Source: Pelagomonas calceolata (lineage: Eukaryota). Taken from it: 64,000 bases of DNA. Shown here one piece after another: positions 280 to 62,670 of the stretch. The translations under genes and the position numbers were made by a program. The stretch is from assembly GCA_918797485.1 (NCBI GenBank), contig CAKKNE010000001.1, positions 5,270,001 to 5,334,000 on the forward strand. The letters run 5' to 3'. The stretch's first letter is position 1. Each line of letters starts with the position of its first letter. Under the pieces are notes generated by a model. It did no database searches. It was not told the origin of the DNA and saw only the letters and a list, made by a program, of their open reading frames with translations.

Positions 280-303
280 GTTAGCGGTAGTAAGGCACTT
301 AGC
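280..303 (+). promoter_or_regulatory. Degenerate CTAG-element copy
   Basis: GTTAGCGGTAGTAAGGCACTTAGC in a divergent intergenic region. Confidence 0.5.
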
Positions 304-611
304 TTTCGTACAGCGGCCGCGGCCACGATTTGCTAGGGCTGCCCCACGCCCGCAGAAGGCAGACCAATCTCCATTTCTGCGTCGCCGAACCCTCCAGCGG
401 CTCACCGCGGACTCGTCGCGTCTCCCCTCGGGCTTCGAGCGTGGGCAGCCAACTCCCTCGCGGCTCGTCTCGCTCGGCGGCGTTCGAGCTGCGAGGAACA
501 AGCCTACGGCGCGTCGTAGCACCTGACGCCGTCGCAGCGGCGGACCGACAAGGCAGCCCCAGTCTCCAGCGCGCGCCACGCGAGTCGCGAGCCGCGCCCG
601 GAGCCAACAAT

Positions 612-947
612 ATGGCCGCCTGGGGCCAGCGCGCCTCGACGGCGAAGATGAAGGAGTGCATCGGCGAAGTCTTGAATGAGATGTTGAAAGACCATACCTA
701 CAAGCAGGACGAGGCGCCTGAATTAACAAAGCAGATCGCCGACCGAGTGAAGAACCGCCTCAAACTCCTGGAACTGCCGCGCTACAAGTACATGGTCCAG
801 GTCGTCGTCGGCGAGCAGCGGGGCGAGGGCGTCCGGATGGGCTGCCGCACGTTCTGGGATAGAGATACCGACGCGTACGCGTCGGAGACGTTCACCAACG
901 ACTCCATCTTCTGCGTCGCGACGGCTTATGCGGTCTACCTGAACTAA
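612..947 (+). CDS. Tctex-1 family dynein light chain (TCTEX1D2/Tctex2b-like)
   Basis: LPRYKYMVQVVVGEQRGEGVRMGCRTFWDRDTDAYASETFTNDSIFCVATAYAVY is the Tctex-1 signature. First in-frame ATG is at 612. Confidence 0.92.
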   Translation: MAAWGQRASTAKMKECIGEVLNEMLKDHTYKQDEAPELTKQIADRVKNRLKLLELPRYKYMVQVVVGEQRGEGVRMGCRTFWDRDTDAYASETFTNDSIFCVATAYAVYLN

Positions 948-983
948 GTTCTTACTTCTTATCTATTTCTCCTTTCCAGTCCG

Positions 984-2705
984 TCACTCCTCGCGCCCGT
1001 CTCGAGAGCTCGGCGAAGCACTTTTGTTCCACGCAATTGCGCGGTCCCACAGCACGGAAGAGCGCCACTGCTCCGCTTCTAATGCCGCGATGGACTTTGC
1101 TAGAGTACTTGCGTCCATGGCTAGCTCACAAAGGTCCCCAATGCCGCCGTGGTCCGACCGTCGCGTCGTCTTCGGGAGGAGCTCTGTCAACGCATCTTCC
1201 GAGGGCGGGCCGTCGTCGGGGATGGCGAAGCGTTCTCGCAGTGAGTTCCACTTTGACTGCACTTCCGTAAATTCTTTCGCACACGTCTCATAGGTCAGAT
1301 CTGGACCGTCAGATACGCGCGAGCAGCCCTTGCACATCAGATAAGTCAGTAAGGGATAGTGCCAGTCCACGTTTCTCGTCTTGATGTCTTCCGCATCTAG
1401 TAGATCAGGCGGTAATCCGAGCTTGTCGTGGGCCTGGTTCGTCACCCAGGAAGCGAGGTCCTTCGGTCGGGCTAATCTACTTCTCACACCGGAAGCATAC
1501 GATAGCAAGTCCCGATCCTTCAAGCGGTGGCGGTGCAAACGAGGCCCCATGCCCGCGATAGATAGCGGCAAAGTGTCCTCGGTCTCGACACCACATAAAG
1601 CGCGACACTCCAGGCAAGCCTCCATCTCCGCGAAGATAATCCGAGCCAGCTGCCGCCCGTCGACGAAGGCCGCGCGCCAGTCCTCGAAGGGCACGTAGGA
1701 CGGCAAGCAGTCGACGGCGCTCTTCGGCGCGCCACCCAAGCCCGCTCGTTTGGAGGCGGCGTTCGCCCACTGCATTAGTATTTTTTCAGGTAAGTTCTTT
1801 GACGGTTCACTACCAAGGGCCTCTATCTCATTAGGAGAGATGAAGGTCGGCGCGATGTAGCGCGGCGCGCCGGCAGGCTCACCATCTGCAGGATAAGAGC
1901 GACCCTTGAACAAGGCTCGTTCCCCAGACCCAAGCAAAGCGTCCATGTCCAGAGCCTGGACGCCCACCAACGCCAGCAACCCGTTCTCGGCCTTCTCGGC
2001 CCGAGCTCTGAAGGTAGCGTTTTTGGTCTTGATCTTTTGGCGCTCCTCGTCGGTGAGCTCTCGTTCTTTGGAAGCCTTAAGTTGTTTTTCGAGGTCTGCG
2101 ACCTTCGCGACGAGCTCCGTACACCTATCTTCCGCTCCTTGCTGCGCCTCTCTCGCTTCGGACAATTCCTTCTGGCGCGTCTCCTCCTCTAACTCTGCAC
2201 GCCTTTCTGCTCGCTGGATCCGAGCAACTCTACGCCACTCCCTCACTAGAAATCTTCTTCTACGCAACGTATACCTTGCAATGATCTGCTCGATGTGCTT
2301 CCTTTCCGCAGTGGCTTTGATTGTATGATTCTTCCACAGATGTAAGATAAACAACACGATCGTCCGAGAACCACCTGCCCTTTTAGTAGCTCGCGCCCAC
2401 AGCCACGCGGCGCCGCGGCATCGCGCTTCTCGATAATCGAGGAGAGCTTTCTCCGTGATCGCGGAGGCCGTGGCGAGCGACACTTCGGCGCGATGCGTCG
2501 CGTCGGCGAGGTCCACAGGAGGCCTTAACGCTTTGGTTGCCCGCCCTTCGACGGCGTCGGCCCTCGTCAATGTCGTGGGCTTCGTGAACTCGCGCGAGCC
2601 CCTCCGCCGGTCGGCGCCCCACTGCGCCGGTCCTCTATCAGTACCTATGAGGCCGCGCGTGGCCGTGGCCGCCCGTGCGGGCTGTTCGGTGAGCTGGGGC
2701 AGCAT
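984..2705 (-). CDS. Coiled-coil protein with a probable calponin-homology (CH)-like domain
   Basis: 573-aa ORF. An E/K/R coiled coil is followed by PEKILMQWAN...AFVDGRQLARII...LGLPPDLLDAEDI, which resembles CH-domain motifs. Confidence 0.6.
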   Translation of the reverse strand: MLPQLTEQPARAATATRGLIGTDRGPAQWGADRRRGSREFTKPTTLTRADAVEGRATKALRPPVDLADATHRAEVSLATASAITEKALLDYREARCRGAAWLWARATKRAGGSRTIVLFILHLWKNHTIKATAERKHIEQIIARYTLRRRRFLVREWRRVARIQRAERRAELEEETRQKELSEAREAQQGAEDRCTELVAKVADLEKQLKASKERELTDEERQKIKTKNATFRARAEKAENGLLALVGVQALDMDALLGSGERALFKGRSYPADGEPAGAPRYIAPTFISPNEIEALGSEPSKNLPEKILMQWANAASKRAGLGGAPKSAVDCLPSYVPFEDWRAAFVDGRQLARIIFAEMEACLECRALCGVETEDTLPLSIAGMGPRLHRHRLKDRDLLSYASGVRSRLARPKDLASWVTNQAHDKLGLPPDLLDAEDIKTRNVDWHYPLLTYLMCKGCSRVSDGPDLTYETCAKEFTEVQSKWNSLRERFAIPDDGPPSEDALTELLPKTTRRSDHGGIGDLCELAMDASTLAKSIAALEAEQWRSSVLWDRAIAWNKSASPSSRDGREE

Positions 2706-2903
2706 TTTTCCTGCGTTCGCGAGGCGTTTGAGGCAGCCCTTTCAGCGCCCGCCTGCTCGACGGCGTTTGCCCTTTTCAGCGCCTGCCTCTCCCTGGCACA
2801 GCGCTGAGAGGCGCGGAGCAAAGCCACTGGGATCGCGGCCCTGGAGCGTTCAAGGGGTGGCGGCGAGGCCTCGGAATGGTTGCGAGGAGTCCTGAAATCG
2901 CGA

Positions 2904-2925
2904 GCTAGCGGCCTAAGACACTAGC
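2904..2925 (+). promoter_or_regulatory. CTAG-element copy (2-bp deletion)
   Basis: GCTAGCGGCCTAAGACACTAGC between divergent genes. Confidence 0.75.
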
Positions 2926-3139
2926 AAAAGCAGCTCCTTGGGACAAAGCGGGGGCTTAAGCTCTCTAAGTAGAGGCATTAGTGCAACGTGTGCACGGGAG
3001 CAGCCTTGCGTTGAACCATATCAACGCGCCAGCTAAGAATTTTCCTGTGCAAAGGCCTAGCAGCCGAGCTAACCACTGCACCCACTGCCCACTGCCTGCA
3101 CGCCATCGCCGCGCAGCGCTACCAGCCGCAGTATTAAGC

Positions 3140-4465
3140 ATGGCCCCAGCAAGCGGCGACCTCAAAAAGCGCGCCACGAGCGGCCAACTCACCGACGCGG
3201 AAAGAGCGTCGGCCTGGCGCGTCTTCTTAGGAGCATCGACAGACATAAACTACAAGAAACTCAAAGACGACGCCTTACCGGACGCGGCGAGCATCAGTAG
3301 CGATAGCGACCCCCTCTCGGGCTTGCTCGACGATGCAAAGAATAATGATGGCTGGGCGCGGTTCCACGCGAATGTGGAAAACCGCGAGGAGATCCGCACG
3401 GACTTAGAAAGGTTAGTGGTCGACGGGTTTCCGGAGTCCCATTTCAAGGATCCACAGCGCCAGACGCTGATGCTGGACGTGTTGACGGTCTGGGCGGCCC
3501 GTAATTCATTAGGTTATCGCCAGGGCATGCACGAATTGTTAGCTGTTTTATGCGAAGTCTTGGAGCAGGAGAAACGCGAAGGCTTCAACAACTTTGCGCA
3601 GAGCGGAGCTGTTAGTGATGGGCCCTTCCATGAATCGGACGCGTATGTCTTATTTGACGCGCTGATGGCGCACCAAGCATCGTTGTTCGCCACGGACCTC
3701 GGGGCCGATGCTCCGGTGCTGAAATTGTGTAGGAGGTTCCAGACTGAAAGTTCGCAATTACTTTCGTTGGGCAATGGGTTTAACAGTGTCGAGCCGCAGC
3801 TCTATGGACTCAGGTGGTGCCGCCTCTTGTTCAGCCGCGAAATCGCGTGTCCCGCCCTGTTGCAGTTGTGGGACGGGCTCTTCGCGTTATGCCACGCGCA
3901 TCAAAAGGAGCTGAGTGTCGTGACGGAGAAGTGCTGCACCGCTCTAATTTGTGCGGCGGCGCCCAATTTGCGGGGCGGCGCTAAAGAACAGATCGCCCTC
4001 GAAATTTTAATGAGGTACAAGAACCACGTCGCGCCGGCGGTGCCGCGGCTCTTGGATATAAGTGAGCGGCTTGTTGATGGAAGGGGCCTGCCGCCCGTGC
4101 GGACCGCTCCGGCACCGCAGCGTCCCCAGGTGGTCCACACGCACGGCGCCGCGCCGGTCAAGCCGCCGCGCGCCCGCGTTCCCGCCGGCCCGCCGCCCGG
4201 CTCCTCGACGTCGACGACGTTCGTGAAGCCGACGCCCGCGCGGGCCCCACCGCCGGCGCCGCCGCCGCAACCGCAGACGATCGACCGCGCGGCGCTCCTC
4301 TCGTCGCCGAAGGCGCCGTCGCAACCGAGCGTTCTCCCGTCGTCGCGGCTGCTGCGGGCGGTCGCGGTCCTGCGGGGCAGCGCCGTGACGGAGGAGACCC
4401 GACGCCAGGCGGCGCTCGCGCAGATTGAAGACGTCGCCGCGGAGCTGCGGCGGCGGCGCTTGTGA
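3140..4465 (+). CDS. Rab-GAP TBC-domain protein (TBC1D5-like)
   Basis: IRTDLER (IxxDxxR), YRQGMHELLA (YxQG) and EPQLYGLRWCRLLFSRE motifs, plus a Pro-rich tail. ATG at 3140. Confidence 0.88.
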   Translation: MAPASGDLKKRATSGQLTDAERASAWRVFLGASTDINYKKLKDDALPDAASISSDSDPLSGLLDDAKNNDGWARFHANVENREEIRTDLERLVVDGFPESHFKDPQRQTLMLDVLTVWAARNSLGYRQGMHELLAVLCEVLEQEKREGFNNFAQSGAVSDGPFHESDAYVLFDALMAHQASLFATDLGADAPVLKLCRRFQTESSQLLSLGNGFNSVEPQLYGLRWCRLLFSREIACPALLQLWDGLFALCHAHQKELSVVTEKCCTALICAAAPNLRGGAKEQIALEILMRYKNHVAPAVPRLLDISERLVDGRGLPPVRTAPAPQRPQVVHTHGAAPVKPPRARVPAGPPPGSSTSTTFVKPTPARAPPPAPPPQPQTIDRAALLSSPKAPSQPSVLPSSRLLRAVAVLRGSAVTEETRRQAALAQIEDVAAELRRRRL

Positions 4466-4781
4466 GTAATTTCTTTGTGAGTCTACGTCTGATTCGGCCG
4501 CGTCGATGGCGTTCGCGCGCGCCCTGTGAGGCTCGCTTCGCCTCGGAGAGAGAGCAAAGCAACGCGACAAGAGACGGGACGCCCGGGACGCGGACGCTGG
4601 TCGTGTGCTACTGTCCAGTGCTCTCCCGAGGCAGCACTGCGTCGGCCCCTGCGCTCTCGCGCCTCGCCCGGCCTCTGGGGGGCAGCCACAGCGCTAGCGC
4701 CGCGCGGGCCGTGACCCACGCCGCCGCCGCGGCGCCGCGGCGCAGGGTAGCCCCAAACGCCGCCGCCGTCTCATCACAAAG

Positions 4782-6212
4782 ATGGTCTTCGTCCCCTTGG
4801 AAGGGAATTTAACCCCGGAAGAACAGCACGCCAAGATGCTGGAGCGCTTAAATGAAATGGAAAGTGGCCCGAAACAGCAGAAGCCCGGCGAAGGGCGCAA
4901 GACGAACAACGCGAAGGCGTTTTCGAACTCAAGGCATCCGGACAAGATCCACGCGAGGCATCTCCAGCGACGGCATCACTGCGAGCGCGTCATCCAGGCG
5001 CGCAAGGACGCCTTGGACCTCGCCAAGAAAATCGAGGACAAGTACCGGTCACCGATGAACCGCTACGGCTTCTTGCACGAGATGTGTTCGACGCAGGGTA
5101 TTGATGATCCACAAACTGTGAAAGAGTTAGCTCATGTCAACTTACGTTTACATGAGGAGACCAAAGACATAACAGATAGGTATAAAGCGGCCAATTTGGC
5201 CAAGGAAAGGATCAAAAATGCGGGAAAAAGCATCATCAAGAAGGCCCACGCGAAGGGCAACGCATTACTCGGAGTTATGGGCGCTGCCATGAAGAAGAAG
5301 GCTGAAGAAGGTGGGGAGTCGGTCTATGTCGACGATAAACCTACAGAACCGAAGGAGAAGGAGTGGAAGGACATGACAAGTCGAGAAAGGGCCATGAAGT
5401 TCTATAACCGGACACAGATGCTGGCGGGCAAAAATGACGCCTCTCCGGCCGTGAGAAAGATGAAGGAGAACCGCAAGAAGGATACTGAGACTGCGAAGGC
5501 CTCGATGAAGCGCTCGGGCGATGATGTTCGACTCGCTGGCTTGAAGAACAAGAAGCGACCGGACCTCAAGGAACGACAGGTGCTGGAAAGACTGGAAGCG
5601 AAGTACCTGGGTCTTGTGTTTGTCGCCGAGGTGAAGCGGAAGGAGAAGGAAAAGGCCGACAAGCTGCAGAAGATGCAGGAACGCGCGAAGGCGATAGAAG
5701 CTCAAGACAGGGAGAACCGGCTCGAGGCGAAACTCAAACGGCAGAAACGATTGAGAGATATGGCCGCCTATGCTGGGTGGGGGAGACAGCCTCATAGAAT
5801 GGAGGGAAGCAAGGCGCCTCGGTCCGTGTTGGCGTCGAAGGGACTGCAGATTCTCGCGGCACCGGCGATGCGGAAGCGGTCTATTAGACTACCGTCGTTC
5901 AAGCGAACGGCTTTTAAACCAGTCATGGAGCAGGTCGTCGAGGACGTCGAGGCGACGCCGAAGCGGAACGTCAGGGACTTTATGTCGAAAGCGCTCGTCA
6001 AGCGGGACACAACCGTGGTCAGTCCGGAGGAGGACGAGATGTCCGTGGTCACTTTGGATTCTGCTGCGGCTACTATTGGTTCGACAGCGCGCGGCAACCC
6101 GTTCTCGCCATCATCGAGGCGGCCGGCGTTGTCGCCGCTCGAGGCGCGTTCCTTGGAACTGGACGACATGCTCGAGCCTGAGGGCGCCGAGGAGTCGAAA
6201 GCAGAAGGCTAA
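4782..6212 (+). CDS. Hypothetical Lys/Glu-rich coiled-coil protein
   Basis: 476-aa ATG ORF with strong K/E/R bias; no motif recognised. Confidence 0.7.
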   Translation: MVFVPLEGNLTPEEQHAKMLERLNEMESGPKQQKPGEGRKTNNAKAFSNSRHPDKIHARHLQRRHHCERVIQARKDALDLAKKIEDKYRSPMNRYGFLHEMCSTQGIDDPQTVKELAHVNLRLHEETKDITDRYKAANLAKERIKNAGKSIIKKAHAKGNALLGVMGAAMKKKAEEGGESVYVDDKPTEPKEKEWKDMTSRERAMKFYNRTQMLAGKNDASPAVRKMKENRKKDTETAKASMKRSGDDVRLAGLKNKKRPDLKERQVLERLEAKYLGLVFVAEVKRKEKEKADKLQKMQERAKAIEAQDRENRLEAKLKRQKRLRDMAAYAGWGRQPHRMEGSKAPRSVLASKGLQILAAPAMRKRSIRLPSFKRTAFKPVMEQVVEDVEATPKRNVRDFMSKALVKRDTTVVSPEEDEMSVVTLDSAAATIGSTARGNPFSPSSRRPALSPLEARSLELDDMLEPEGAEESKAEG

Positions 6213-6370
6213 GTTTGTTGTGTTTATCCTTATCCGCCCGCCTCGACGCCATCGCCGCGACGGCGTGCCGGTGGAGCTCCGTCGCACAGGATCCCTAGTC
6301 GCCGGAATCGGGCCACCACGCCGTCCACCGCGGTGGATCGAGTCGCCGCCAATCGGATACACATATCACA

Positions 6371-7174
6371 CTAACACCACTGATTACGCAACCGAAGGTA
6401 CCCCGGCGGCCGGAGCTGGTCGGCCTGGCGCATGATCTGCTCGATCAATCCCTTCGCGGCCACGATCTCCCGGAAGCACTCCCGCAGAATGTCCCGATCT
6501 TTCGATTTGACGACGCAGACCATGAACACGACGTGTTCGATCCTCCATAAAAACGTCCGCGTCTCGTTCATGTCGTCGTCAAACGTCATGAGCCGCGCGG
6601 GGCCGTCCCGTCGATACTCGAGCATCAGGTCCGACGCCTGGAACATGTACTTCGACGAGGCTAACAGACTAATATAGTCCGGCTCGCACCGGCCGTCGTG
6701 GTGCAGGTAGGGCATCTGGTAGCCGTCCTCGCCCATGACCGCGGTATGTAATACACATGCTGCCGTGCCCAGATCATGTAGCACGGCCTGCACCGTGTTT
6801 TGCACGACGCCCGCAATCTTTTCGCCAAACCCTTTGAAATCTTTCAAATTTTGGGAGAGCTCTCGGCCGGGCCCGCCGTACTCTTCGACGAACGCCATCA
6901 AGATCTCTCCAGCTAAGAGGCGGCCGAACAAGGCTTTATCCGTTCGGTCATGCACTAAGGCGCACGTCACGCTGTCTTCGCGGCACATGGTCACCGCCAA
7001 GGACGACATCTCGATGTAGGACGGGCGCATCGCCGTCGTCTGAGTGGCGAACTCGGTCATCGCTGTGAGCAGCGAGCCGAGCAAGCGCGGTTGCGCGATC
7101 TTCTCCTTGCTGTACTCCTTCTCGAAGAGCACTAACCCGCTCGGTGCGAGGACGATGAGGTTGCGGATGGGCAT
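6371..7174 (-). CDS. Hypothetical protein with a longin-like N-terminal domain
   Basis: 267-aa ORF. The N-terminus IRNLIVLAPSGLVLFEKEY...LLGSLLTAMTEFA resembles longin/sedlin-type folds. Confidence 0.6.
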   Translation of the reverse strand: MPIRNLIVLAPSGLVLFEKEYSKEKIAQPRLLGSLLTAMTEFATQTTAMRPSYIEMSSLAVTMCREDSVTCALVHDRTDKALFGRLLAGEILMAFVEEYGGPGRELSQNLKDFKGFGEKIAGVVQNTVQAVLHDLGTAACVLHTAVMGEDGYQMPYLHHDGRCEPDYISLLASSKYMFQASDLMLEYRRDGPARLMTFDDDMNETRTFLWRIEHVVFMVCVVKSKDRDILRECFREIVAAKGLIEQIMRQADQLRPPGYLRLRNQWC

Positions 7175-7343
7175 CCTGTAAAACAGGGCCTCTCACTGTG
7201 AGTGCTTTTGGAGCGCTCTGCGTGCCTTAGAAATTCGTGCTACCGCCGCATCCGGTCGGTTTATGATTCATGCGTGTCTGGCAACCGCTGGAATGTTGTA
7301 AGACGGGCTACGCGCGGCGTTTTTGGCAAGTGCTGGTTAGAGA

Positions 7344-7367
7344 GCTAGCGGCCTGTAAGACACTAGC
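7344..7367 (+). promoter_or_regulatory. CTAG-element, consensus copy
   Basis: GCTAGCGGCCTGTAAGACACTAGC between divergent genes. Confidence 0.8.
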
Positions 7368-7701
7368 AAGCAACGAATGTTCTTCAAATTTCCCCCAGAC
7401 GTAGGAAATGGGGTGCTCTTGCAGGCGACGGGTGCGCGTCTGCCCTGGAGGACGCCTCGTTTTGCGGTCCGTTTTGCGGCAGGCAGCCGCAAATTAGATA
7501 GGCGCGACGCGCACCGACGTCCTCCGAACGCTGTGTGACCTGCACAAGTACTGTCGCAGCCGTCTTCATCGAGCGCGGGCGCAGCCAGCGCCACGGATAG
7601 ACGCATAGTGCAGTGCAGCAAAAAAGAGCACAGCCCCACAAAAATCTAAAACTCCGCCGCGCGCGACGCAGCGCTGCCAAAGAAGACATCAAACAAAAAC
7701 G

Positions 7702-8778
7702 ATGGCCGACGACGACCTCCTCGCGCCGCCGTCCCAGATGCCGCCGCCCGCGCCGGTGCTGCCCGTCCCGGTGGCGCCGCCGCTACAACATCAGTGGGGC
7801 GCCGTCGCGCCGCAGCTGGCGCCGTTGGGGGCACCGATTACGACGGACGAAGCCTTGCGACAGCTGGAAGGCGAAGAAGATCGAAGAGCGAGACCTCGAA
7901 AACCGAGTATTGGCGGGAAATGGACGCCCGAAGAAGATCAAAAATTACTCAAGATAGTGGAAGAGCACGGCCCGAAGAAGTGGAAGCGCATTTCCGAACT
8001 CTTAGGTACTGTCAGGACGGACATCCAGTGCTTGCATCGGTGGACCAAAGTGATAAAACCGGGCCTGAACAAGGGCCCCTGGCTCCAGCAGGAAGATGAT
8101 TTAGTACGGGCAGAAGTGCAGCGCATGAAGCGCGAGTCCGCCGAGGGCGTCGTGAAGTGGGCGCAGATCGCCGCGAGCCTCAACGGCGTCGCAGGCAATG
8201 GTAGTACGAGGCTCGGCAAGCAGTGTCGCGAGCGGTGGTTCAACCACTTGGATCCTACCTTGAAGAAGGGCGACTGGGAGGAATCGGAGAACGCTACGCT
8301 GCTGAAACTGCAGAGGCAACTAGGTAATAGGTGGTGCGAAATAGCGAAAGTACTTAAGGGGAGGTCAGAGAACGCCATAAAAAACAGGTGGAACTCGTCG
8401 GCGATGAAGCGCTACGTCGCCGCCGCCGCGGCGGCGTCGGGCCAGCCCATACCACCACCTGCTCCCGCGCGGAAGCGGAAGGCGCCCGCGCCACAACCGG
8501 TTGCGGTGCGGGCGCCGTCGCCGATACCGTCAGCTACTGTGGTGGATGGCGTCGACGGGTTGGTGGCGGTGTTGAGTGATGCGTCCGTCTTCCCGACGGT
8601 GTCTCTACAACTGGTCAAAACGCTCGTCGGGCCCATACATTTAAATGATGAGCAGAAGCGTCGGATTTTACAAGCCTGCGAGCGGCGGCTGAACGAGGAC
8701 GAGGCGCCTACCCGCAGTTCTGTGGTGCGGCAGCTCCGCGAGCTGCTCGCGCCGGCGGCCGCGGTCGCTGCTTCATAG
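7702..8778 (+). CDS. Three-repeat MYB (R1R2R3-type) transcription factor
   Basis: Three MYB repeats: GKWTPEED...[15 protein letters not shown]...[14 protein letters not shown] and KGDWEESE...[22 protein letters not shown]. Confidence 0.93.
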
Positions 8779-10252: not shown

Positions 10253-10329
10253 GGGTTGGGTAAGAAGTTCTAAGACACAACGCGGCGACGGCGTCCGGTG
10301 AGTTGATATATCTTAAACATGGAGTACTA

Positions 10330-12095: not shown

Positions 12096-12119
12096 GCTAG
12101 CGGCATGTAAGACACTAGG
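12096..12119 (+). promoter_or_regulatory. CTAG-element copy
   Basis: GCTAGCGGCATGTAAGACACTAGG between divergent genes. Confidence 0.8.
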
Positions 12120-13154: not shown

Positions 13155-13209
13155 GTAAGTTTGATTTGAGAGTGACCTGAATCATCATTTAGAACTAGAC
13201 CACTTCACA

Positions 13210-15951: not shown

Positions 15952-16371
15952 CTTGGTTGCCAACGCTAGCACTTGTGCAGCTGCTGTATGTACAATGGGG
16001 CTGCCCTTACCGGTGCGGCAGCCCGCTTGCTCGTATGATCGCGTCGCCGGCGCGAAGGGCTGCACAACTGCGTAATCTACTACGCACGGCTAGCAAACAC
16101 TATTGATTGAATTCTGAACTCGTTGAAATCCTCTCAATTCGGGTCGCAACCTAGTATGTCTAAACGCTACATAATCGTAATTTGGACGCGTTTGGCCTAA
16201 GCTCACGCGTGCTGCGCTTTTACAGCGTAGTGCGTCGCCTGCGGGTCGCCTCCATCGCACCGCTGCTGACCACAATCAGCGAGCGGACCGCTGCATCGCT
16301 GTACACCAATAGCCAAAACCGCCTAGGTCCGCGCGTGTGAATCGCTGCGCGGCGCACAAAAAAGGCCAAAG

Positions 16372-21069: not shown

Positions 21070-21093
21070 GCTAGTGTCTCTACAGACGCTAGC
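21070..21093 (-). promoter_or_regulatory. CTAG-element copy
   Basis: Reverse strand reads GCTAGCGTCTGTAGAGACACTAGC, between the divergent sirtuin and HECT genes. Confidence 0.75.
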
Positions 21094-23922: not shown

Positions 23923-24041
23923 GACGGGCGTGCGCTAAGTATGTGTTGATATACGAAGATCGGGTTTTGTGGTACCGCTCCCCGGGGCGCGGCTTCCAGG
24001 GCTCCCGCGCAGGAAATCCGCGTGTCTGAAATCCCGCGTGT

Positions 24042-24070
24042 CTAGCTTTACTTAAAGTTAAGACACTAGG
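24042..24070 (+). promoter_or_regulatory. Degenerate CTAG-element copy
   Basis: CTAGCTTTACTTAAAGTTAAGACACTAGG upstream of the 24327 gene; the right half matches consensus. Confidence 0.55.
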
Positions 24071-42754: not shown

Positions 42755-42778
42755 GCTAGAGGGTTTATTCCTACTAGA
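42755..42778. promoter_or_regulatory. CTAG-N14-CTAG variant
   Basis: GCTAGAGGGTTTATTCCTACTAGA. Same spacing as the consensus but a different core; lies between divergent genes. Confidence 0.45.
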
Positions 42779-45943: not shown

Positions 45944-45967
45944 GCTAGTGTCTTACAAGCCGCTAGC
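45944..45967 (-). promoter_or_regulatory. CTAG-element copy
   Basis: Reverse strand reads GCTAGCGGCTTGTAAGACACTAGC, between divergent genes. Confidence 0.8.
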
Positions 45968-48444: not shown

Positions 48445-48469
48445 GCTAGCGTCCTGTAAAGACACTAGC
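48445..48469 (+). promoter_or_regulatory. CTAG-element copy
   Basis: GCTAGCGTCCTGTAAAGACACTAGC, 138 bp upstream of the fibrillin-like gene. Confidence 0.75.
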
Positions 48470-48580
48470 AACAATCAGGACGCATAGTAGTATACCTTAG
48501 TTCCCCTTGGCTCGAGGCACCGAGCGGGAGGGGTAGGTGGACCCCGAGACGCGATAAAAGACGAAAAACGATACGCAAGA

Positions 48581-51148: not shown

Positions 51149-51773
51149 GGGTGCTTTGGCGGCGTCTGGCTGTGGGCTGTGCCTAGCTGCTTTGGGGATT
51201 GGGGGGCCCGTTTCGAGGCGTCGTTGGGAGGTGCCGCGGCGGCGGCGTCGCAATGATGTTTACGTGTGGTGGGGCAGCACGCGGCGTCTTTATCAAGGTG
51301 TTTGCGGACGCTTTTAGGAAGGCCCAGCAGCCCCATCATCACAAGGTCGGGCCGGGGCCGGCCGCACTGCTCCCCGGCAGGCCTGCGCATCGCTCCGCGC
51401 GGTGCGGGCTGCCCGCCGGAGCCCTCCGCGGTCTACGAGCTACTAGCCCCACTAGCATCTCAGCGCCGGCCTGCCCGCCGCGCCGGATAAAGCCCGCAAA
51501 GCAGTCACGGTCTACTGCGAGTAAGCATTCGGAGCGTACCGCAATACCCCACAGCCGGGTGGAACCGCTGCCGCGAATCTCAGCTCCGCTCGGCACGCAA
51601 AAGGCATTGTGTTGGCCTCACCGGGCGCACAGCTGCCGTCGGACGCGTCAAGGGGCTGCCCCTGACTGGTGTGCCACGTCGAACGCCGTCGCGCCGTACG
51701 CCATCGCGCCTACGCCGTCGCGCCTTGCGCCGTAGAATCGTAGGGAAAAGACCCGCCACGGCCGCGGAGCGCC

Positions 51774-52838: not shown

Positions 52839-52899
52839 AGTCAACTAATTAATTCATAACCTAAGGATAGCGCGAGCGGCACGAGGCGGGAGTTGTTGT

Positions 52900-55288: not shown

Positions 55289-55469
55289 TTAGCTGACGAG
55301 GCTTGTAATTTATGCGATTCGCTGCGGTATCAGGAGCGCGACGGTGCAAAGGGCTCCGAGCACCGCTTTGGATCTAATTCGTTATCTCTTTGTCCAAGAG
55401 CGCCGGCCAAACCCAGCGCAAAAAACGCGACTAGTGCCCTTACGCTATCGACGCGTTGCTCTATGGTCC

Positions 55470-56711
55470 TTAACTTTCGGCGTTCCGCGGCGCCCCCGCC
55501 TCGAAGACGATGCCCTGGTCCGGCGCGAACCGATCCAAGTACCCCTGGATCCAGGCGACCTTGGCGGTCGTCCCGTCGGCATGCGGCTCGATCGCGAACG
55601 CGGGCTTGCCGTTCTCCGGGTCCGCGAAGGCCGCGTCGAAGTTCGGTCCGACGGTGATGCCCTCGCCGCCGCCCGTCTCGGCCACGCACCGCGCCGACCG
55701 CTCCGTCGGCAGCGGGGCCTCTTCGCCGCGCACTAGAGCTGCCAGGCGTTTTCCGAGGGCCAAACCACCCTTGTACGCAAACTCGCCCGCTTTCGGGATG
55801 GGCACGCCGGCCGAGGGAATCAGCGCGGCGCACGCGTCGCCGACGCAGTAGACGCCGTCCTTCCCCGCGACGGCGTTCGTCCGCAGGTCGACCGGCACGG
55901 AACCCTTGGCCTTGGCCAGGTCCTTCACAAAGTCCGGCGCGCGGTGCGGGAACGTCGCCAGCACCAGGTCGGCGACGAGGTCCTCCTTACTGGTCGACAC
56001 GCACTTGCGGCCGTCCTGCTCATCAACCGAAACCACTTGCGTGTCCGGGAGGTACGTGATATTCTTCGAAGCCATCGCTTCGGTAAACGCTTTTTTAGCC
56101 TTGGGCCCGCCGAAGGGCCACGGCACCGGCGACGTGACCGTGATGGCGACGGCGTCGCGCACGCCCTTGCCCCGCCGTTTTGCTGCGTCGTCGATGAGGC
56201 AAGCCACCTCGAAGGGCAGCGGCGGGCACTTGTAGGGGCACTTTGTGATACTAATGACCACTCTTCGAGTCTTGCCGCCGGCTTCGACGGCGTCGAGGAA
56301 TTTCTCAATATCGTTCGCGAAGTCCTTCTTGGCCGTCAGGTCCACACAATGGTCCTCCAAGCCCGGGATGGGGCTCGGGTCCGACACCGCGCCGCACGCG
56401 AGGACGAGGTGGTCGTACGGTAACACTCCAAACTGCAGATTGACGTGCTTCGCCGCGTAGTCGACCGACTGGACCGTGCCCTTGCGCAGGAACTTCGCGG
56501 CGGACGTCTTGGAGAGCGGCACTTCCATTGGTTTCGCGCGGCCGTCGAGCCCAAACTGCCACGTCGCGCCTACACTCAGTGTGTCGCGCGCGTCGATGCA
56601 CGTGACGACGGTGTTGGGCGGCGTCTCCGCACCGAGCGCCTCGCAGACGCCCTGGCCGGCCCAGCCGGCGCCCACAACTATTATATTGTGTGTTTTGGGG
56701 ATGCTGGTCAT
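55470..56711 (-). CDS. FAD-dependent oxidoreductase, sulfide:quinone oxidoreductase (SQR)/FCSD-like
   Basis: IVVGAGWAG, YDHLVLACG, YKCPPLPFE, VYCVGD, IPKAGEFA and RCVAETGGG. Confidence 0.8.
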   Translation of the reverse strand: MTSIPKTHNIIVVGAGWAGQGVCEALGAETPPNTVVTCIDARDTLSVGATWQFGLDGRAKPMEVPLSKTSAAKFLRKGTVQSVDYAAKHVNLQFGVLPYDHLVLACGAVSDPSPIPGLEDHCVDLTAKKDFANDIEKFLDAVEAGGKTRRVVISITKCPYKCPPLPFEVACLIDDAAKRRGKGVRDAVAITVTSPVPWPFGGPKAKKAFTEAMASKNITYLPDTQVVSVDEQDGRKCVSTSKEDLVADLVLATFPHRAPDFVKDLAKAKGSVPVDLRTNAVAGKDGVYCVGDACAALIPSAGVPIPKAGEFAYKGGLALGKRLAALVRGEEAPLPTERSARCVAETGGGEGITVGPNFDAAFADPENGKPAFAIEPHADGTTAKVAWIQGYLDRFAPDQGIVFEAGAPRNAES

Positions 56712-56972
56712 TATTACTGCTTGCACGACGGTGTGCGGTGTGCGTTATGGATTCTGGCGGCCAACGCACTGGTTGCGCGAGAGATTTGCTACGGAGAGCT
56801 ACGGAGAGCTTGGAGAGCTGTGTGCTGGAGAAGAGCTTTTTAGAGTATACTGGACTACGATCGCTGCAGCGATGCTTAGTCGTGGTCCTTGTCGCCCGCT
56901 CGACAGCCTCTCAATGAGCAATGTCGCTGCGTGTGGCGAGCCTGGCGCTGCTGCAGCGCTCGGCCCAGGCTT

Positions 56973-56996
56973 GCTAGCGCCTTACAGGCCGCTAGG
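56973..56996 (-). promoter_or_regulatory. CTAG-element copy
   Basis: Reverse strand reads CCTAGCGGCCTGTAAGGCGCTAGC, upstream of the SQR-like gene. Confidence 0.72.
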
Positions 56997-57088
56997 TAAA
57001 AACGAAGCATGCGGCGTCGACGCGCGCCGTACCAGCATCAGGCGGTCGACGACTACGCCTAGAAAAAAAACGACACTCAAAGTTATAG

Positions 57089-57463
57089 CTAGCAGCCGCG
57101 CCCGAGCAGCTCGCACAGGTCCTCGCGCTGCTCGGCTTTGCTCTTCTTCTTCTCCTGCCGCTGCTTCTGTTGCTCCGCGGCCAAGCGCTGCGCCGCCGTC
57201 TGGCGCTCGCCGCCTCGAGATCCCGCGTTCTGCGCCGCGAGCTTGCGCGCGATGCGCGCCGCCTCGATCTCCTCCTGCGACGGTGGCGCCAGGTCCTCCA
57301 CGTCGGCGGCGAGCGCTGGCGCACTGACGAGGGCGAGCGCCGCGGGCAGTCGTTGCAGCAATGCGCGGCGTGGGGACGCCTCAAGCACAGCAGTGCGTGT
57401 CTGCCGCGGTGCAAGCGCGCTCGCGCAAGCGATAAGCGCTGCGGCGATGGCGGTTCTCATCAT
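57089..57463 (-). CDS. Small plastid (probably thylakoid-lumen) protein
   Basis: Signal MMRTAIAAALIACASA|LAP, twin-arginine-like RRALL...APALA, and C-terminal LCELLGRGC. Confidence 0.7.
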   Translation of the reverse strand: MMRTAIAAALIACASALAPRQTRTAVLEASPRRALLQRLPAALALVSAPALAADVEDLAPPSQEEIEAARIARKLAAQNAGSRGGERQTAAQRLAAEQQKQRQEKKKSKAEQREDLCELLGRGC

Positions 57464-58005
57464 TGTCGATGATATTTGCTGATAATTAGCTGCAGCAGCA
57501 ATGGCACACAGGCTGAGCTGGGCCGCTCGAGTCGATCGACAGCTCTGCCAAGCTCGGGTTTTGTAGGCATCCAAAAACAGCGCCGGACTGATTTACAGCC
57601 CTTGGAAGGCAGTGCTGGAGAGCTTTGACGGCGTTCTTCGACCCCTCCCTCTCTCCCCTCTAGACTTTTGCCAGACGCCGGTAGCAAAAAAGCAGCCGCT
57701 GCGCACGGCCTTCCGCCCCTTTTACCGGTGCGCCCGCAGCGTCTGGTGGCAAGTCGTCGACACTTTCTCGCCGGACGCCGCGCGCTGCGCGCCCTGGACG
57801 CGTGCGAGCGAGAAATTTGGCAAACAACGATATCGCAGTTCAGGGCCAAAGCGCGCCGCATCAGTCGCCGCGTCCGGCCCGCGCCGCTCCTACGCGGTCC
57901 CACAGCCCTCATTGCCCCACGGAAGCCCCGGCCAATCGTGCGCGCGCGCGCAGGCCCCAAAATTGTTGTACCGATCGCACCGCTCCTCTGTGACCCCCCA
58001 AAAAG

Positions 58006-59291
58006 ATGACGTCGATGCTCAGCAAGTTCACCGCCATCGGCGGCCTGTCCGGCAACGACGCGGCGCGCAACCAGAACGACATGCAGGGCCTCGCCGCGCT
58101 CTCGAGCTCGACGCCGCACCGACCGGCGCGGAAACCAACGTCGCACCCGCATCGCATCACGCTTCAATCCACGCACAGGCACCAGCTCGGCAAGACCAAG
58201 GCCATGACCTCGGCGAGCCGCTTCGGCTCGGCGCAGCGCGTGCCCGTCGCGGCGCGGAGCCCCGGCGGCAAGGAGGCCTTGAAGCCCCTCGACGAGGACT
58301 CCGAGATGCACGAGGCCGACGCGCCGCCTCCCTCGAACCGCGCGGGCCCGCACAACGCCTGCGACATGACGCTCGACGACTTCGAAGTGGGCCGCCCGCT
58401 CGGCAACGGCAAGTTCGGCCGCGTCTACCTCGCGCGCACGAAGCGCGACAAGTACATCGTCGCGCTGAAAGTCCTGCGCAAGTCGCAGCTCGAGAAGAAC
58501 GGCGTCGAGCACCAATTGAGACGCGAGATCGAGATCCAGACGCACCTCGTGCACAAGAACATCCTGCGCGCGTGCGCGGCGTCCCTTCCCTTCGACGTGC
58601 GCTGTGCGACGCGTCGCGGCGACGGAGTGAGGGAGTGTGCGACGCGTCGCGGCGACGCCGTGAGGGAGGACGCGACGACGCGGCCCACGCAGGCATGTAC
58701 GGCTACTTCTGGGACGAGAAGCGCATCTATCTGATCCTCGAGTACGCCCCCGGCGGCGAGCTCTACAAGCGCCTCACGGCGAAAGGAAGGTTCAGCGAAC
58801 AGGAGACGGCGCGCTACGTTCTCGAGATGGCTAGGGCTCTAGGCTACTGCCACCAGAAGCATGTTATTCATCGCGACATCAAGCCCGAGAACCTCCTCTT
58901 GGGATTGAACGGCGAGCTGAAGATCGCGGACTTCGGCTGGTCCGTGCACGCGCCGTCGCTGCGAAGGGAGACGTTCTGCGGCACGTTGGATTATCTGCCG
59001 CCGGAGATGGTCGAGGTGCGCGGCTACGACGAGAAGGTGGACTTGTGGTCGCTCGGCGTGCTGTGCTACGAGTTCTTGGTAGGGGAGCCGCCCTTCGACG
59101 CGCCGGGCAAGAAGGCGACGTTCAAGCGCATTTCTCGGGTCGACCTGAACTTCCCGGCCTACGTGTCCGCCGGCGCGCGCGATTTGATCACGAGATTGCT
59201 GGCCAAGGACCCGAAGACTCGTTTGAGCTTGTCGGAAGTGGAGCGGCACCCGTGGATCGTGCGCAAGACGAACCCGGACCCGGTCCCCTAG
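58006..59291 (+). CDS. Aurora kinase (exons 58006-58567, 58693-59291)
   Basis: [32 protein letters not shown], spliced [36 protein letters not shown] and D-box-like ARDLITRLL. Confidence 0.96.
58568..58692 (+). other. Predicted GC-AG intron (125 bp) with an internal 33-bp tandem duplication
   Basis: Only C|GCGCGT...CCCACGCAG|GC restores NILRMYGY. Repeat units start at 58603 and 58636. Confidence 0.88.
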
Positions 59292-59563
59292 TCGCTGTCC
59301 CTCCTCTCCCCGCCCGCTCTTTCAAGTAAGAGTTCTACGTATATTCTACCGCGCGTCGACGGCGTTTAGAGGCTCGCAAAATTCCCCGCGGGTTTTCGCG
59401 TTTTTGTCGATCGTTTAGTTGCGACTTTGCGGCCCTACGCTGCGTGCAGAAGTCCAAACCTGTGAGGCATAGTCACCGCAGACCGCTCCCAGCATCGCTG
59501 TGCATCGCTGCGTCTCAGGCTGCACGCTGCAGGCGTATTGCTGCAACAAGGCGACGTGCATCG

Positions 59564-60319
59564 ATGCCCCGCGCCGCATCGCTCGCGACACTGATGGCGG
59601 GAGTAGTCCTGGGCGACCTCTCGCAGCTCGCGCCGCCAGCAAAGGGCAAGACGCGGCTGTACCTGTGCCGCCACGGCCAGACCGACTGGAACGCCGCGAA
59701 GAAAATACAAGGGTCCGTGGATCGGGAGTTGAACGAGCTCGGCGAGCGGCAGGCGTTGTTGATAGGCGAAGCGCTGAAAAGTGTGGACATAACGCTCGTC
59801 GCCGCGAGTCCGTTGTCGAGGGCGTTCCGCACGGCGGACCTCGCGATGAATGTTGCGTGTCCTAGCGTGGAGGGCGTGCGCATCCATCCTGGTTTAAGGG
59901 AGATGAATTTCGGTGAATTGGAGGGCGCCGTGGCCGCCGAGTCATCGCTCTACGCGGAGGTGAATGCCGCGTGGGCGAGCGGCGACGTCGAGAGGAAGTG
60001 GCCCGCGGGCGAGAGCCCTAGAGATGTGGAGTTACGAGGACGGCAAGCTTTAGCAGGCTTGGGTTTGCTCGGCCAGAAAGATGGACCTCTCCATACGCAT
60101 GTGGCCGTCGTGTGCCACGGGCGGTTCAACAAGATCTTGTTGAGCTCGCTGCTAGGGAGGGGCATCGACAAGTGCGGCGAGATCCAGCAGGGCAACTGCT
60201 GCATTAATGTGGTGGACGTCGACGTCGCCGCGGCGGTCGATGCGGCACAACCGGCGACGGAGGTCGCCCTGGACTCGCGCGACCATCTGAACGGGGTCGA
60301 CGCGGACACGCCGTCATGA
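59564..60319 (+). CDS. Histidine phosphatase superfamily (phosphoglycerate mutase-like) protein
   Basis: LYLCRHGQTDWN, SPLSRA..TA, LREMNFGELEG, GES and VVCHG. Confidence 0.92.
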   Translation: MPRAASLATLMAGVVLGDLSQLAPPAKGKTRLYLCRHGQTDWNAAKKIQGSVDRELNELGERQALLIGEALKSVDITLVAASPLSRAFRTADLAMNVACPSVEGVRIHPGLREMNFGELEGAVAAESSLYAEVNAAWASGDVERKWPAGESPRDVELRGRQALAGLGLLGQKDGPLHTHVAVVCHGRFNKILLSSLLGRGIDKCGEIQQGNCCINVVDVDVAAAVDAAQPATEVALDSRDHLNGVDADTPS

Positions 60320-60403
60320 CCCCTTACGCGCTCGCCTTCGCCCGATCGTAGTATTCTCGTACCGTGACTAGCACGCCATCGTCGCTTACAAGAAAGATAA
60401 ACG

Positions 60404-60955
60404 TTAGTCGAGCTTCTCCGCCTGCCAGAGCCCGTCCCCCAGGAAGTGGAGGTTCTCGACGCAGTGGCCCTTGTTCACCTCGCGCACGGCGTCGCGCCCC
60501 ATGAGCACCTGGCCCACGGCCATGGCGTGCTTCTTGCCGTGGGCTCCAATAACAACTGGAGAGCCTTTGGGCAAGTCGTGGTCGAGCGCCCCGTCCTCCG
60601 ACGTAAACCCGGGGCACATGATGTTCGCGCCGCCCAGGACGAAGCGGATCGCGCCGGCGTCGGTCTGCCACGTGCTCGTGGCGAAGCACGACTTCCTCCT
60701 GTGAACTAACCGCAACGTCGGGTACCACGGGCCGTCGCGCTGCTGGAAGAACAGCGGTTCCTGGGCGGCGCACAAAATATTCACGTGGTTCTGGCACTTG
60801 GCCATGGAGATGTCTTTCTTCGGGAGGATCTCATCAATAACATCTTCGATCAAGGGGTACTGCTCGACCAACGCCGCGCGGATGCCGCGCACCACGCTAG
60901 ACTTGACTTGCGACCGGCTGGAGACGGCCTCGGCGGGGTCGAACTTCTTGAACAT
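60404..60955 (-). CDS. MCTS1: MCT-1/Tma20 translation re-initiation factor (pre-PUA + PUA)
   Basis: MFKKF...VKSSVVRGI, PTLRLVH, DAGAIRFVLGGANIMCPG and NLHFLGDGLW. Confidence 0.93.
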   Translation of the reverse strand: MFKKFDPAEAVSSRSQVKSSVVRGIRAALVEQYPLIEDVIDEILPKKDISMAKCQNHVNILCAAQEPLFFQQRDGPWYPTLRLVHRRKSCFATSTWQTDAGAIRFVLGGANIMCPGFTSEDGALDHDLPKGSPVVIGAHGKKHAMAVGQVLMGRDAVREVNKGHCVENLHFLGDGLWQAEKLD

Positions 60956-61166
60956 TTTTGTCTTATTTGTCGCGGCGGCGGCGTTGCTGTTGGCTGCTGC
61001 GGCGGCGGCGTGCAGTGAGGTGTGCGCTGCTGTGTTGACTGCTCCGGCGGGACGACGCGGCGCGCGAGGTTCGCTGGAGGTCTGGATTGGTTCAAGAAGC
61101 ACCGATGCTGGCGTACAGGCGGCAGCGCTGCACAGAGCATGCAAAAAAGGCGAGCAGGGCATCCGC

Positions 61167-61190
61167 GCTAGCGGTCTGTAACACACTAGC
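61167..61190 (+). promoter_or_regulatory. CTAG-element copy
   Basis: GCTAGCGGTCTGTAACACACTAGC between the divergent MCTS1 and WW genes. Confidence 0.8.
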
Positions 61191-61418
61191 AAACACGGTT
61201 TTTTTGCTTCACAACTTACACCAGCTTTATACATGTGGAGGCAGCCCAAGCGGCCGCGAATGGACGCGCAGGGGCAAGCTATGCGACGCATTGATCGTAT
61301 AGCGCGATGAGCGGGCCGGGCTGCGGCTAAGGGCTGCCGGCCCAAACAGACTGCCCAACCGGCACGCCATCGACGCGCCGCGGCTGGGGCGCCGCACTGC
61401 TGCCCAAGACAGTGAAAC

Positions 61419-62396
61419 ATGGCCTGGACGCGCGAGTTCGACACGACCTACCAGACCCACTACTGGTACGACGCGGCGACGGGCGCGTCGAGCTGGACGG
61501 AGCCGCCGGGCTGGAGCGAGCCGAGCGTCGAAGCCGAGAACCCGGAGACGGACCGACTCACAAATAAGGACGACGAGCTCGAGCTGGTGGACCTGGGGCC
61601 GCGGCGGCGCGAGCGGTCGCAGGACGACTCGGACGATGAGTCCGACGAGGACGTGGAGATGCTGCCCTCATCAAGGGCGGACGCCGCCGCGCGCCAGGTC
61701 TACGCGGAGACGGCGCCGACCATGCGCCAGTGGCGGTGCTGCTTCTACTTCCACGCGAATTTTTGTGAGCAATACTGCGCGGCGGCCGAAGCTTTAATAA
61801 GGGCGCCGTGCTATGTGGTTGCTGGTATTATAGTGATCTGCTGCCGGCCGACGCTGGGCTATCGATATATAAGAGAGGGGCTGCTGTTCGCGGCGCTGGG
61901 CGTCACATTACTACTACCGTGCGCGGTCGCGTGTGGTGTTTATGGAGACCATAGCGTCGACAAGGACACGTGGCTGATGAAGCCGGTCTGCACTTTATTA
62001 GGCTGCGTCGACGCGCGGCGCTTATTCTGCATCACGTGCGGCCAGGGGTCCCTCGCGAAGAACGCGACGTTCGGCGCCTCAGAAAAATCGCAGGACTCCT
62101 GGCCCGGCCGCGTCGTGCACCCGCCTCTCAAATACTGGCGGAAGGGCGCGCGGGCGTGTAGTAGGGCCGAGAAAATGGCAATCGCGGCCTTCTGGGTCGC
62201 GTACCACTACGCGGTCCAGGCCGGGCACGCTCTATTGCATTATGGTAGAGAGGGCCTCGGCTGGGCGCGCGACTACTTCCGAGATGATGGAGGGCGCTGG
62301 CGGCGGGTCCCCTCCAACGCCTTCCCGGCGGCGTTCTCGCCCGAGCGCCCGCCGCGCCACGACCCCGGCCTCGAGGGCGTCGTCGAACTTGTGTAA
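61419..62396 (+). CDS. WW-domain membrane protein
   Basis: N-terminal WTREFD..YQTHYWYDAATGASSWTEP (WW domain), an acidic linker and Cys-rich hydrophobic segments. Confidence 0.78.
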   Translation: MAWTREFDTTYQTHYWYDAATGASSWTEPPGWSEPSVEAENPETDRLTNKDDELELVDLGPRRRERSQDDSDDESDEDVEMLPSSRADAAARQVYAETAPTMRQWRCCFYFHANFCEQYCAAAEALIRAPCYVVAGIIVICCRPTLGYRYIREGLLFAALGVTLLLPCAVACGVYGDHSVDKDTWLMKPVCTLLGCVDARRLFCITCGQGSLAKNATFGASEKSQDSWPGRVVHPPLKYWRKGARACSRAEKMAIAAFWVAYHYAVQAGHALLHYGREGLGWARDYFRDDGGRWRRVPSNAFPAAFSPERPPRHDPGLEGVVELV

Positions 62397-62646
62397 GTAT
62401 CTTAACTTTTTTTGTCCTTCTCCCCTGGTCCCGGTGAGCGTGTGAGCCAAATGTCCAACCGCGCCGGGAGCGTGCGCGTGAGTCTGAAGTGTGTTCAGGC
62501 CGGTGCCCGACTTTGTCTCGGCACCGCGACGGCAGCCCAAGCGCGCTATGCGTGGACCGGCGGAACGACTCAAAACAACCCGCGTGAAAAACCTGTGTGC
62601 CGCTCGCGCGTGCCCTACAAGCTCGTACGGCCGAGTTTTTATGTTT

Positions 62647-62670
62647 GCTAGTGTGTTACTGGCTGCTAGC
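62647..62670 (-). promoter_or_regulatory. CTAG-element copy
   Basis: Reverse strand reads GCTAGCAGCCAGTAACACACTAGC, upstream of the CDF gene. Confidence 0.72.

Follow-up and report, generated by a model that had tools for sequence, protein, structure and literature searches.

Orientation-tolerant sites occur at many TATA-less or bidirectional promoters, as exemplified by yeast Reb1, Abf1 and Rap1, vertebrate ZNF143, Drosophila DRE/Motif 1 and fission-yeast Homol D. Human NRF1, NFY and Sp1 sites have a preferred position upstream of the start and aid start selection, the more so where an Initiator is missing; they are short, are spread over −120 to −40 and show helical periodicity (PMC11269187). 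The m1m2 motif pairs of Caenorhabditis derive from the MITEs CERP2 and CELE2, and the THAP protein HIM-17 binds them; the majority of copies sit in recognisable MITEs away from promoters, and the pairs serve germline genes (10.1101/2022.01.21.477252). The introner elements of Pelagomonas calceolata and Aureococcus are described as introns of about 210 bp with terminal repeats and splice sites (10.1101/2021.10.25.465678).

The element considered here is a motif of 24 bases with CTAG at each end (CTAG-N14-CTAG), found in intergenic DNA of P. calceolata within a stretch of 64,000 nucleotides (contig CAKKNE010000001.1, positions 5,270,001 to 5,334,000), which we call the window. On balance we favor the interpretation that it is a conserved non-coding site at the center of promoters, where a lineage-specific factor probably binds and would anchor initiation outside each CTAG. 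The literature searched contains no published description of the element and nothing on how pelagophytes specify transcription starts.

The window holds eight CTAG-N14-CTAG pairs where 0.30 are expected and where 100 shuffles give at most two. Six of the nine listed strong copies match the consensus with three or fewer mismatches, as does nothing in 100 shuffles, and all nine are non-coding and within three edits of it. The original prediction of a conserved 24-bp CTAG-bounded element across the window is thus borne out. Its spacer, described as mostly fixed at 14 bp, has that length at most copies but is shorter at 2904 (12 nt) and longer at 48445 (15 nt); among the 21 unascertained copies, 7 depart from 14 nt, with lengths of 12, 13 or 15 nt (overall range 12–15 nt). 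Element length is typically 22–24 bp, with an invariant 4-bp CTAG as each end. Most of the weak copies proposed earlier, the one at 31258 among them, are indistinguishable from chance, but that at 16151 has a pile of read 5′ ends 24–25 nt away. The motif is absent from the 20 largest families of a general repeat finder. Extrapolation from 9 copies per 34 genes in the window to 16,667 genes gives a genome total of roughly 4,400 copies.

Table 1. Copies of the CTAG-bounded element and adjoining features, in window coordinates
Feature	Position	Strand	Context
Strong copy	2904..2925	+	12-nt spacer; divergent spacer; sole listed 5′ pile 2771-2772 (− gene), 132 nt away
Exact consensus copy	7344..7367	+	Divergent spacer, − gene / Myb gene
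Strong copy	12096..12119	+	Divergent spacer
Strong copy, 3 edits	21070..21093	−	Divergent spacer, Sir2 / HECT genes
Strong copy	45944..45967	−	Divergent spacer; − gene with 5′ pile 45919, 25 nt
Strong copy, 15-nt spacer	48445..48469	+	Tandem promoter, opposed to gene downstream; 5′ pile 48418, 27 nt
Strong copy	56973..56996	−	Tandem promoter, small − gene (57089-57351) / − oxidoreductase gene
Strong copy	61167..61190	+	Centered between divergent 5′ piles 61139 (28 nt) and 61222 (32 nt)
Strong copy	62647..62670	−	Tandem promoter, opposed to gene downstream; 5′ pile 62699, 29 nt
Degenerate copy, one CTAG intact	16151..16171	−	Divergent spacer; 5′ pile of + gene 16195-16196, 24-25 nt, predicted in advance
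Variant copy	24042..24069	+	Right half intact, 20-nt spacer, tandem promoter
GC-rich dispersed repeat, family A	23962..24022	+	Adjoins left end of element at this copy and five unrelated loci
Weak match to dispersed repeat family B	48522..48551	+	Family B lies right of element in L081, L092, L108
CTAG pair, 5-nt spacer, possible short variant	51443..51456	+	Divergent spacer; 5′ pile 51486, 30 nt; post hoc find
Possible degenerate copy	280..303	+	6 edits, a level also reached by shuffled consensuses; probable divergent spacer
CTAG-N14-CTAG, unrelated spacer sequence	42755..42778	+	Divergent spacer; membership uncertain

Placement relative to genes is strongly patterned. None of 117 ascertained and none of 21 unascertained copies (p 6e-8 for the latter) lies in a called CDS, in agreement with the earlier statement that the element is never found there. 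On our gene map of the window, strong copies occupy 6 of 12 divergent spacers, 3 of 10 tandem spacers and 0 of 11 convergent ones. Location between divergent pairs therefore stands; the absence from convergent spacers noted earlier is seen but is only weakly informative, because these spacers sum to 783 bp, against 9,146 bp for those with which they are compared. Among called neighbors, 70 of 96 face outward, split evenly between left and right (35:35), and the median distance from copy to start codon is about 200 bp, as anticipated for an element that sits upstream of genes in either orientation. The symmetry is imperfect, since one orientation is mildly favored at tandem promoters (11:2 in loci, 13:4 with the window added). 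The genes beside element copies are functionally mixed.

The RNA evidence comes from stranded poly(A) RNA-seq of one sample, which was not cap-selected; piles are listed for 6 of the 15 genes that face away from a strong copy. In five of these six measurable genes the 5′ read pile lies 25, 27, 28, 29 or 32 nt outside the element edge, and in the sixth it lies at 132 nt. The probability that five of six would fall by chance inside one 8-nt span is about 3e-5, for a span defined from these same data. The spacing of 25–32 nt holds in both element orientations, and at the 61167 copy, where divergent starts are 83 nt apart, the midpoint of the piles (61180.5) nearly coincides with that of the element (61178.5). 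A prediction of pile position made in advance was checked at two of ten sites: it succeeded at 16195-16196, beside a degenerate copy, and failed at 2772, the pile 132 nt away. Six further piles called as ends sit inside genes. Starts at 59425 and at 9049-9067 have no element, and the gene at the latter has the highest expression within 2001-22000; transcription can thus proceed without the element. A CTCAGC half-site seen 30 nt ahead of two starts that lack the element was considered and rejected, as its positions form no peak in the upstream regions of 83 called genes.

The piles probably represent start sites, though true starts may sit a few bases further upstream. The element would then lie about 40 bases from the RNA 5′ ends to its left and right, and the CTAG nearer each gene would fall at or just upstream of the usual position of a TATA box. 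In the ten start contexts, the interval from −35 to −20 is free of TATA boxes. The directionality of a TATA-type element is not seen either: three of the five correctly spaced genes run against the element, outward genes are evenly split, and the element is flipped at an ortholog. A putative protein may read the two CTAGs together with the right-hand core; it would hold the transcription machinery in place immediately beyond each CTAG. Since an outer CTAG lies near the TATA-box position on each side, one site could serve one gene in a tandem arrangement or two in a divergent one. The earlier reading of a general, lineage-specific promoter element is thereby retained and sharpened by pile distance, gene symmetry, CTAG constraint and retention at an ortholog. 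The suggestion of a dimeric factor is weakened in its rigid form, for which a spacer that varies from 12 to 15 nt is ill-suited.

T-tracts occupy the outward strand on both flanks of the element, and TTT is enriched 18–27 nt outward on pooled flanks (79 vs 28). These tracts, like the central position and the orientation independence, would fit equally well with a barrier site of the kind bound by general regulatory factors in yeast, which would keep nucleosomes off about 80 bp. Starts would then coincide with the borders of this gap only through nucleosome geometry in a compact genome, and the polymerase would not be directly anchored. The start at 132 nt and the good expression of genes that have no element are also compatible with a barrier. 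The 8-nt spread of five starts, however, is tighter than nucleosome edges alone usually give, to judge from general knowledge, and we regard a pure barrier as rather unlikely.

The element itself bears marks of constraint. Edits fall at 0 of 168 CTAG positions and at 47 of 294 spacer positions; restricted to the 12 copies found independently of the original prediction, the figures are 0 of 96 and 31 of 168. No copy was found with a near-intact spacer and exactly one damaged CTAG. This pattern, read from the sequences, points to selection rather than to transposon decay, because neutral decay should strike the CTAGs equally. A diverged lineage keeps the element at an orthologous promoter, where the rest of the intergenic spacer barely aligns. 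There, in L022, the counterpart of the 48445 copy has the opposite orientation. Frequent inversion of the 14-mer alone, which this flip first suggested, is weakened by a CAAGC tail that lies to the right in 37 copies and to the left in 4 (2.4 expected); the flip may reflect turnover, or an inversion that takes in the tail. All seven aligned allelic or orthologous pairs carry the element on both sides, six of them having been chosen for carrying it. One other DNA run showed no differences in the pieces listed and is too close to the window to reveal polymorphism.

It might be argued that a mobile element, inserting at CTAG (the target duplication) in open promoter DNA, left the motif behind as a relic or footprint with no function of its own. 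Near-identical copies do occur at more than 100 unrelated loci in marine metagenomes, where 112 of 113 have distinct flanks. Two repeat families adjoin particular ends: family A lies against the left end at six loci, family B against the right end at four. A quasi-palindromic module of 6 bp, in either orientation, follows the right CTAG in 11 copies and is found on the left in 1, and it is held by one of two alleles that are 99% identical. The constraint on the CTAGs nevertheless speaks against such a relic, as do the lack of outer target-site duplications (5–8 bp in 0 of 113 copies, 4 bp in at most 2 of 113), a 14-mer spacer without terminal repeats, and flanks of which 230 of 240 are unique. 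No empty site was seen, although only the pair of L022 and the window is free of ascertainment. A relic without function thus seems improbable, and the micro-transposon of the original prediction finds no support in an active or neutral form. A MITE or other non-autonomous DNA transposon was rejected because the inverted ends span only 5 bp rather than about 10 bp or more and outer duplications are missing. Also set aside were a hairpin or cruciform (DNA fold z −0.5 to +0.4 for five of six strands, −2.0 for one), a non-coding RNA (no Rfam matches in the window or in the 39 of 122 loci searched) and an introner element, as the site is intergenic and the listed rows show no splice joint at any copy.

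Copying in some form is nonetheless hinted at by shared flanking repeats. Longer homology, always on a fixed side, is common to 10 of 240 flanks, so that about 8% of copies share longer repeats. A single ancestral unit uniting families A and B was rejected, since their overlap is only short, and family B was not taken to indicate inversion in L074 and L084, where its matches lie at least 120 bp from any copy. Tandem and inverted copies at L094, L098 and L099, together with the CTAG-bounded modules and the ortholog flip, suggest frequent rearrangement, as might be expected of a replication origin or a recombination or break site within promoter DNA, the distance to starts being a by-product. 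Such a site is very improbable: one copy per 7 kb would be a close spacing for origins, as generally understood, a break hotspot would erode invariant ends rather than preserve them, and the 25–32 nt spacing would be left unexplained. The viral contigs searched have no matches to the motif. Prokaryote genomes yield one match in 596 billion bases, the sole match of its genome; it was rejected as a bacterial copy because the stretch resembles algal DNA joined to bacterial, and is treated as contamination.

If the element acts as a promoter-centered anchoring site, it bears on how starts are fixed without a TATA box, and on why promoters are bidirectional, in a lineage distant from animals, fungi and plants that ranks among the most abundant open-ocean eukaryotes. 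A more speculative extension, to which we give little credence at present, is that at about one quarter of Pelagomonas genes the TATA box has been replaced by a symmetric 24-bp core promoter, each CTAG fixing the start on its own side, which spread as a mobile unit and is read by a domesticated lineage-specific protein. In practical terms, a single long site shared by what are estimated to be several thousand promoters offers a bait for the factor, allows starts and bidirectional promoters to be annotated from sequence, and could provide a compact two-way promoter for transgene work.

Like the sites of Reb1, Abf1, Rap1, ZNF143, DRE/Motif 1 and Homol D, the Pelagomonas element is orientation-tolerant and lies at unrelated promoters; it differs from them in sequence and lineage, and is known here from sequence and RNA-seq. 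It shares with introners of the same organism the character of a genome-wide, lineage-specific repeated sequence but, compared with those introns (10.1101/2021.10.25.465678), is intergenic and lies outside transcripts where measured; alignment with an introner-like intron at 44986-45140 showed nothing in common. A preferred distance to starts is found also for NRF1, NFY and Sp1 sites (PMC11269187), and the likeness drawn here is one of position. The Pelagomonas element has 22–24 bp, its two 4-bp ends do not vary, and the few measured cases give a single tight distance. It departs from the m1m2 pairs in how few of its flanks share longer homology (10 of 240), in that MITE ends were not found, and in the mixed functions of its genes. 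The two are alike in being long, lineage-specific, two-part motifs at many promoters, and copying has been proposed for m1m2 (10.1101/2022.01.21.477252). With its long invariant ends and shared flanks, the Pelagomonas element is a candidate example of a promoter architecture that copying has spread.

The element is real and seemingly undescribed, a symmetric promoter-centre element. The nine strong copies claimed in the original prediction are real: all lie within 3 edits of the consensus in an edit-distance scan of the window, six sites match it at ≤3 mismatches where 100 shuffles gave none, and eight CTAG-N14-CTAG pairs are observed against 0.30 expected. The degenerate copies fared unevenly. 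The copy at 24042 has an intact right half with a 20-nt spacer, but at 42755 the CTAG pair alone resembles the element, and the copy at 280, 6 edits from the consensus, is at the level that shuffled consensuses attain. The sites at 16151 and 31258 have one CTAG each; the latter, a doubtful copy, lies in a tandem intergenic spacer (31196-31526) that is unusually AT-rich for a window of 63% GC. An additional degenerate copy, absent from the predicted list, occurs in a tandem promoter at 55431-55450 (-) with its right CTAG intact.

A gene map of the window was built by combining ORFs, Pfam, RNA reads and a codon model. By this map, a strong copy is present in 6 of 12 divergent and 3 of 10 tandem intergenic spacers and in none of the 11 convergent ones, whose lengths total just 783 bp. 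A small signal-peptide-like ORF at 57089-57351 (-) makes the promoter of the 56973 copy tandem rather than divergent. None of 117 elements in the fetched loci (7 loci removed as alleles or overlaps) lies inside a called CDS. All 21 copies of a bias-free set, not selected via the search pattern (≤5 edits; from 113 loci and the window), are likewise non-coding, where called CDS makes up 55% of bases; no copy of either set is inside called CDS, as predicted. In the loci, elements with genes called on both sides are divergent in 12 cases, tandem in 13 and convergent in 1. Called neighbours point away from the element in 70 of 96 cases, 35 to the left and 35 to the right, at a median distance of ~200 bp; for 47 of the 117 elements no gene is called on either side out to 1 kb, mostly since 41 loci have only 300-bp flanks. 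It is very improbable that such sites are origins or break sites.

Stranded poly(A) reads, all of one sample, cover 44001-64000 (two raw runs) and 2001-22000 (four raw runs). Clusters of read 5' ends (5' piles) approximate starts, being derived from poly(A) reads and not cap data; among those listed, at least 10 are located upstream of start codons and at least 6 within genes. Six genes have both a strong copy and a listed pile, at edge-to-pile distances of 25, 27, 28, 29, 32 and 132 nt. Five therefore fall in one 8-nt span (probability ~3e-5 under uniform placement, the span being chosen from the same data). At 61167 the element is at the centre of two divergent piles 83 nt apart, and three of the five genes at the 25-32 nt distances are opposed to the element's orientation. 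Ten pile positions were predicted before the second read mapping (2001-22000); two were readable, of which 16195-16196 was confirmed and 2772 failed. At 51443, a pile lies 30 nt from a CTAG pair with a 5-nt spacer, and the element is absent at the starts at 59425 and 9049-9067. Pooled flanks carry T-tracts on the outward strand on both sides; the element may be a nucleosome barrier, with starts merely a by-product, although this seems unlikely.

Location, symmetry, distances and constraint are observed properties of the element. It is fairly probable that a lineage-specific factor binds the site and anchors initiation ~40 bp from its centre on either side. The putative factor would read the right-hand core together with the two CTAGs; a single site would serve one tandem gene or a divergent pair.

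Edits in the bias-free copies affect 0 of 168 CTAG positions versus 47 of 294 in the spacer (p 2e-10), and, among the 12 copies that do not come from the original prediction, 0 of 96 versus 31 of 168. Where the spacer has ≤2 mismatches, both CTAGs are present at 124 of 125 places and absent at the other, in a set that is mostly ascertained. The spacer, predicted to be mostly fixed at 14 bp, has that length in 14 of the 21 bias-free copies, but 12, 13 or 15 nt in the remainder; the copy at 2904 has 12 nt and that at 48445 has 15. In a locus orthologous to window 47645-51151 (L022), coding parts are 85-95% identical and intergenic DNA is barely alignable; the element is at the same place in reversed orientation. 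Six further allelic pairs, fetched for carrying the element, all keep it. The current pattern of change looks like selection, and an insertion relic without function is improbable.

No duplication was found outside the element in the loci flanks, and for 5 of 6 strands its folding does not exceed that of shuffles. MITE tests, as far as feasible, were negative, and the element's identity as an introner was rejected. In contrast, 10 of 240 flanks share longer homology that exceeds the maximum reached in shuffles. Of two dispersed repeats, family A abuts the element's left end at six loci, one of them window 23962-24022, and family B abuts its right end at four. In 11 cases the right CTAG, and in 1 the left, is followed by a 6-bp module in either orientation; two alleles that are 99% identical differ in this module. 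A CAAGC tail goes with the right side (37 versus 4 left). Because of the flank homology, the module and the right-tied tail, some copies seem to have moved together with their flanks. No TATA box was found in the start contexts; as the boldest reading, a two-way core promoter that took the place of TATA and was spread by a mobile unit is conceivable, if doubtful. The gene that follows the 24042 variant carries a 38-bp tandem repeat (24214-24361) at its start.

A metagenome scan gave at least 121 loci, with ~2,900 stored stretches estimated, and full flanks were distinct in 112 of 113. Viral contigs gave no matches and prokaryote genomes one, within an apparent chimera: in this contig (L122) of a bacterial MAG, probably a chimeric assembly, DNA that looks bacterial passes into DNA of algal appearance that bears a perfect copy. 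Of ten proteins from motif-bearing loci, three belong to clusters that carry the name Pelagomonas calceolata, three to clusters without a species name among the members examined, and four are absent from the protein collection. Named relatives of a window kinase are found in Aureococcus (63%) and Chrysophaeum (57%). Double copies, back-to-back, inverted and tandem, occur at L094:300-345, L098:295-362 and L099:298-355, one pair having a common CTAG.

The intron at 44986-45140 matches the published description of P. calceolata introner elements, and it and the window GC content agree with the accessible part of the genome paper. Together with the protein clusters and the kinase relatives, this makes P. 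calceolata or a close relative the probable host. The ACGCCATCGACGCG-type motif belongs to the introner body and is possibly also a separate signal. The 16372-19863 frame is possibly a fusion, or two genes in frame.

Other features of the window
Feature	Position	Strand	Remarks
Spliced intron, 155 nt, terminal inverted repeats	44986-45140	-	very high copy in reads; about ten fetched loci match
Frequent ACGCCATCGACGCG-type motif	~4499, 6244, 8812, 11274, 45039, 47213, 47781, 53489, 61365		often inverted pairs, directly past stop codons, in introns, in 5' regions
Open frame, 3,341 codons, Pro/Thr/Ser repeat-rich	32866-42891	-	no Pfam match
~1,160-aa protein, long Ala/Pro 11-residue repeat region	16372-19863	+	C-terminal imidazoleglycerol-phosphate dehydratase-like domain (Pfam E 4e-13); falling read depth in GC-rich middle
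Ankyrin-repeat gene	10330-11166	-	promoter without element; zero reads in bin 10672-11338 in 4/4 RNA runs
Protein kinase gene, two GC-AG introns	58115-58179, 58567-58693		RNA joints
Protein kinase gene, 5' intron	57726-57953		RNA joint

Comparable sites include those of yeast GRF, ZNF143, DRE and Homol D. Among listed papers on Pelagomonas promoters and intergenic DNA and on pelagophyte start sites, no title or abstract describes such an element, and a search for the motif itself gave no papers; subscription papers could list it. Titles and abstracts of work on Aureococcus nucleosomes and promoters or stramenopile bidirectional promoters likewise describe none. The word 'motif' is absent from the accessible main text of the P. 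calceolata genome preprint, whose supplementary repeat catalogue could list the sequence. As far as the accessible parts of the sources go, the element works like position-dependent promoter sites (PMC11269187) and, like the MITE-derived m1m2/HIM-17 promoters (10.1101/2022.01.21.477252), is long and lineage-specific.
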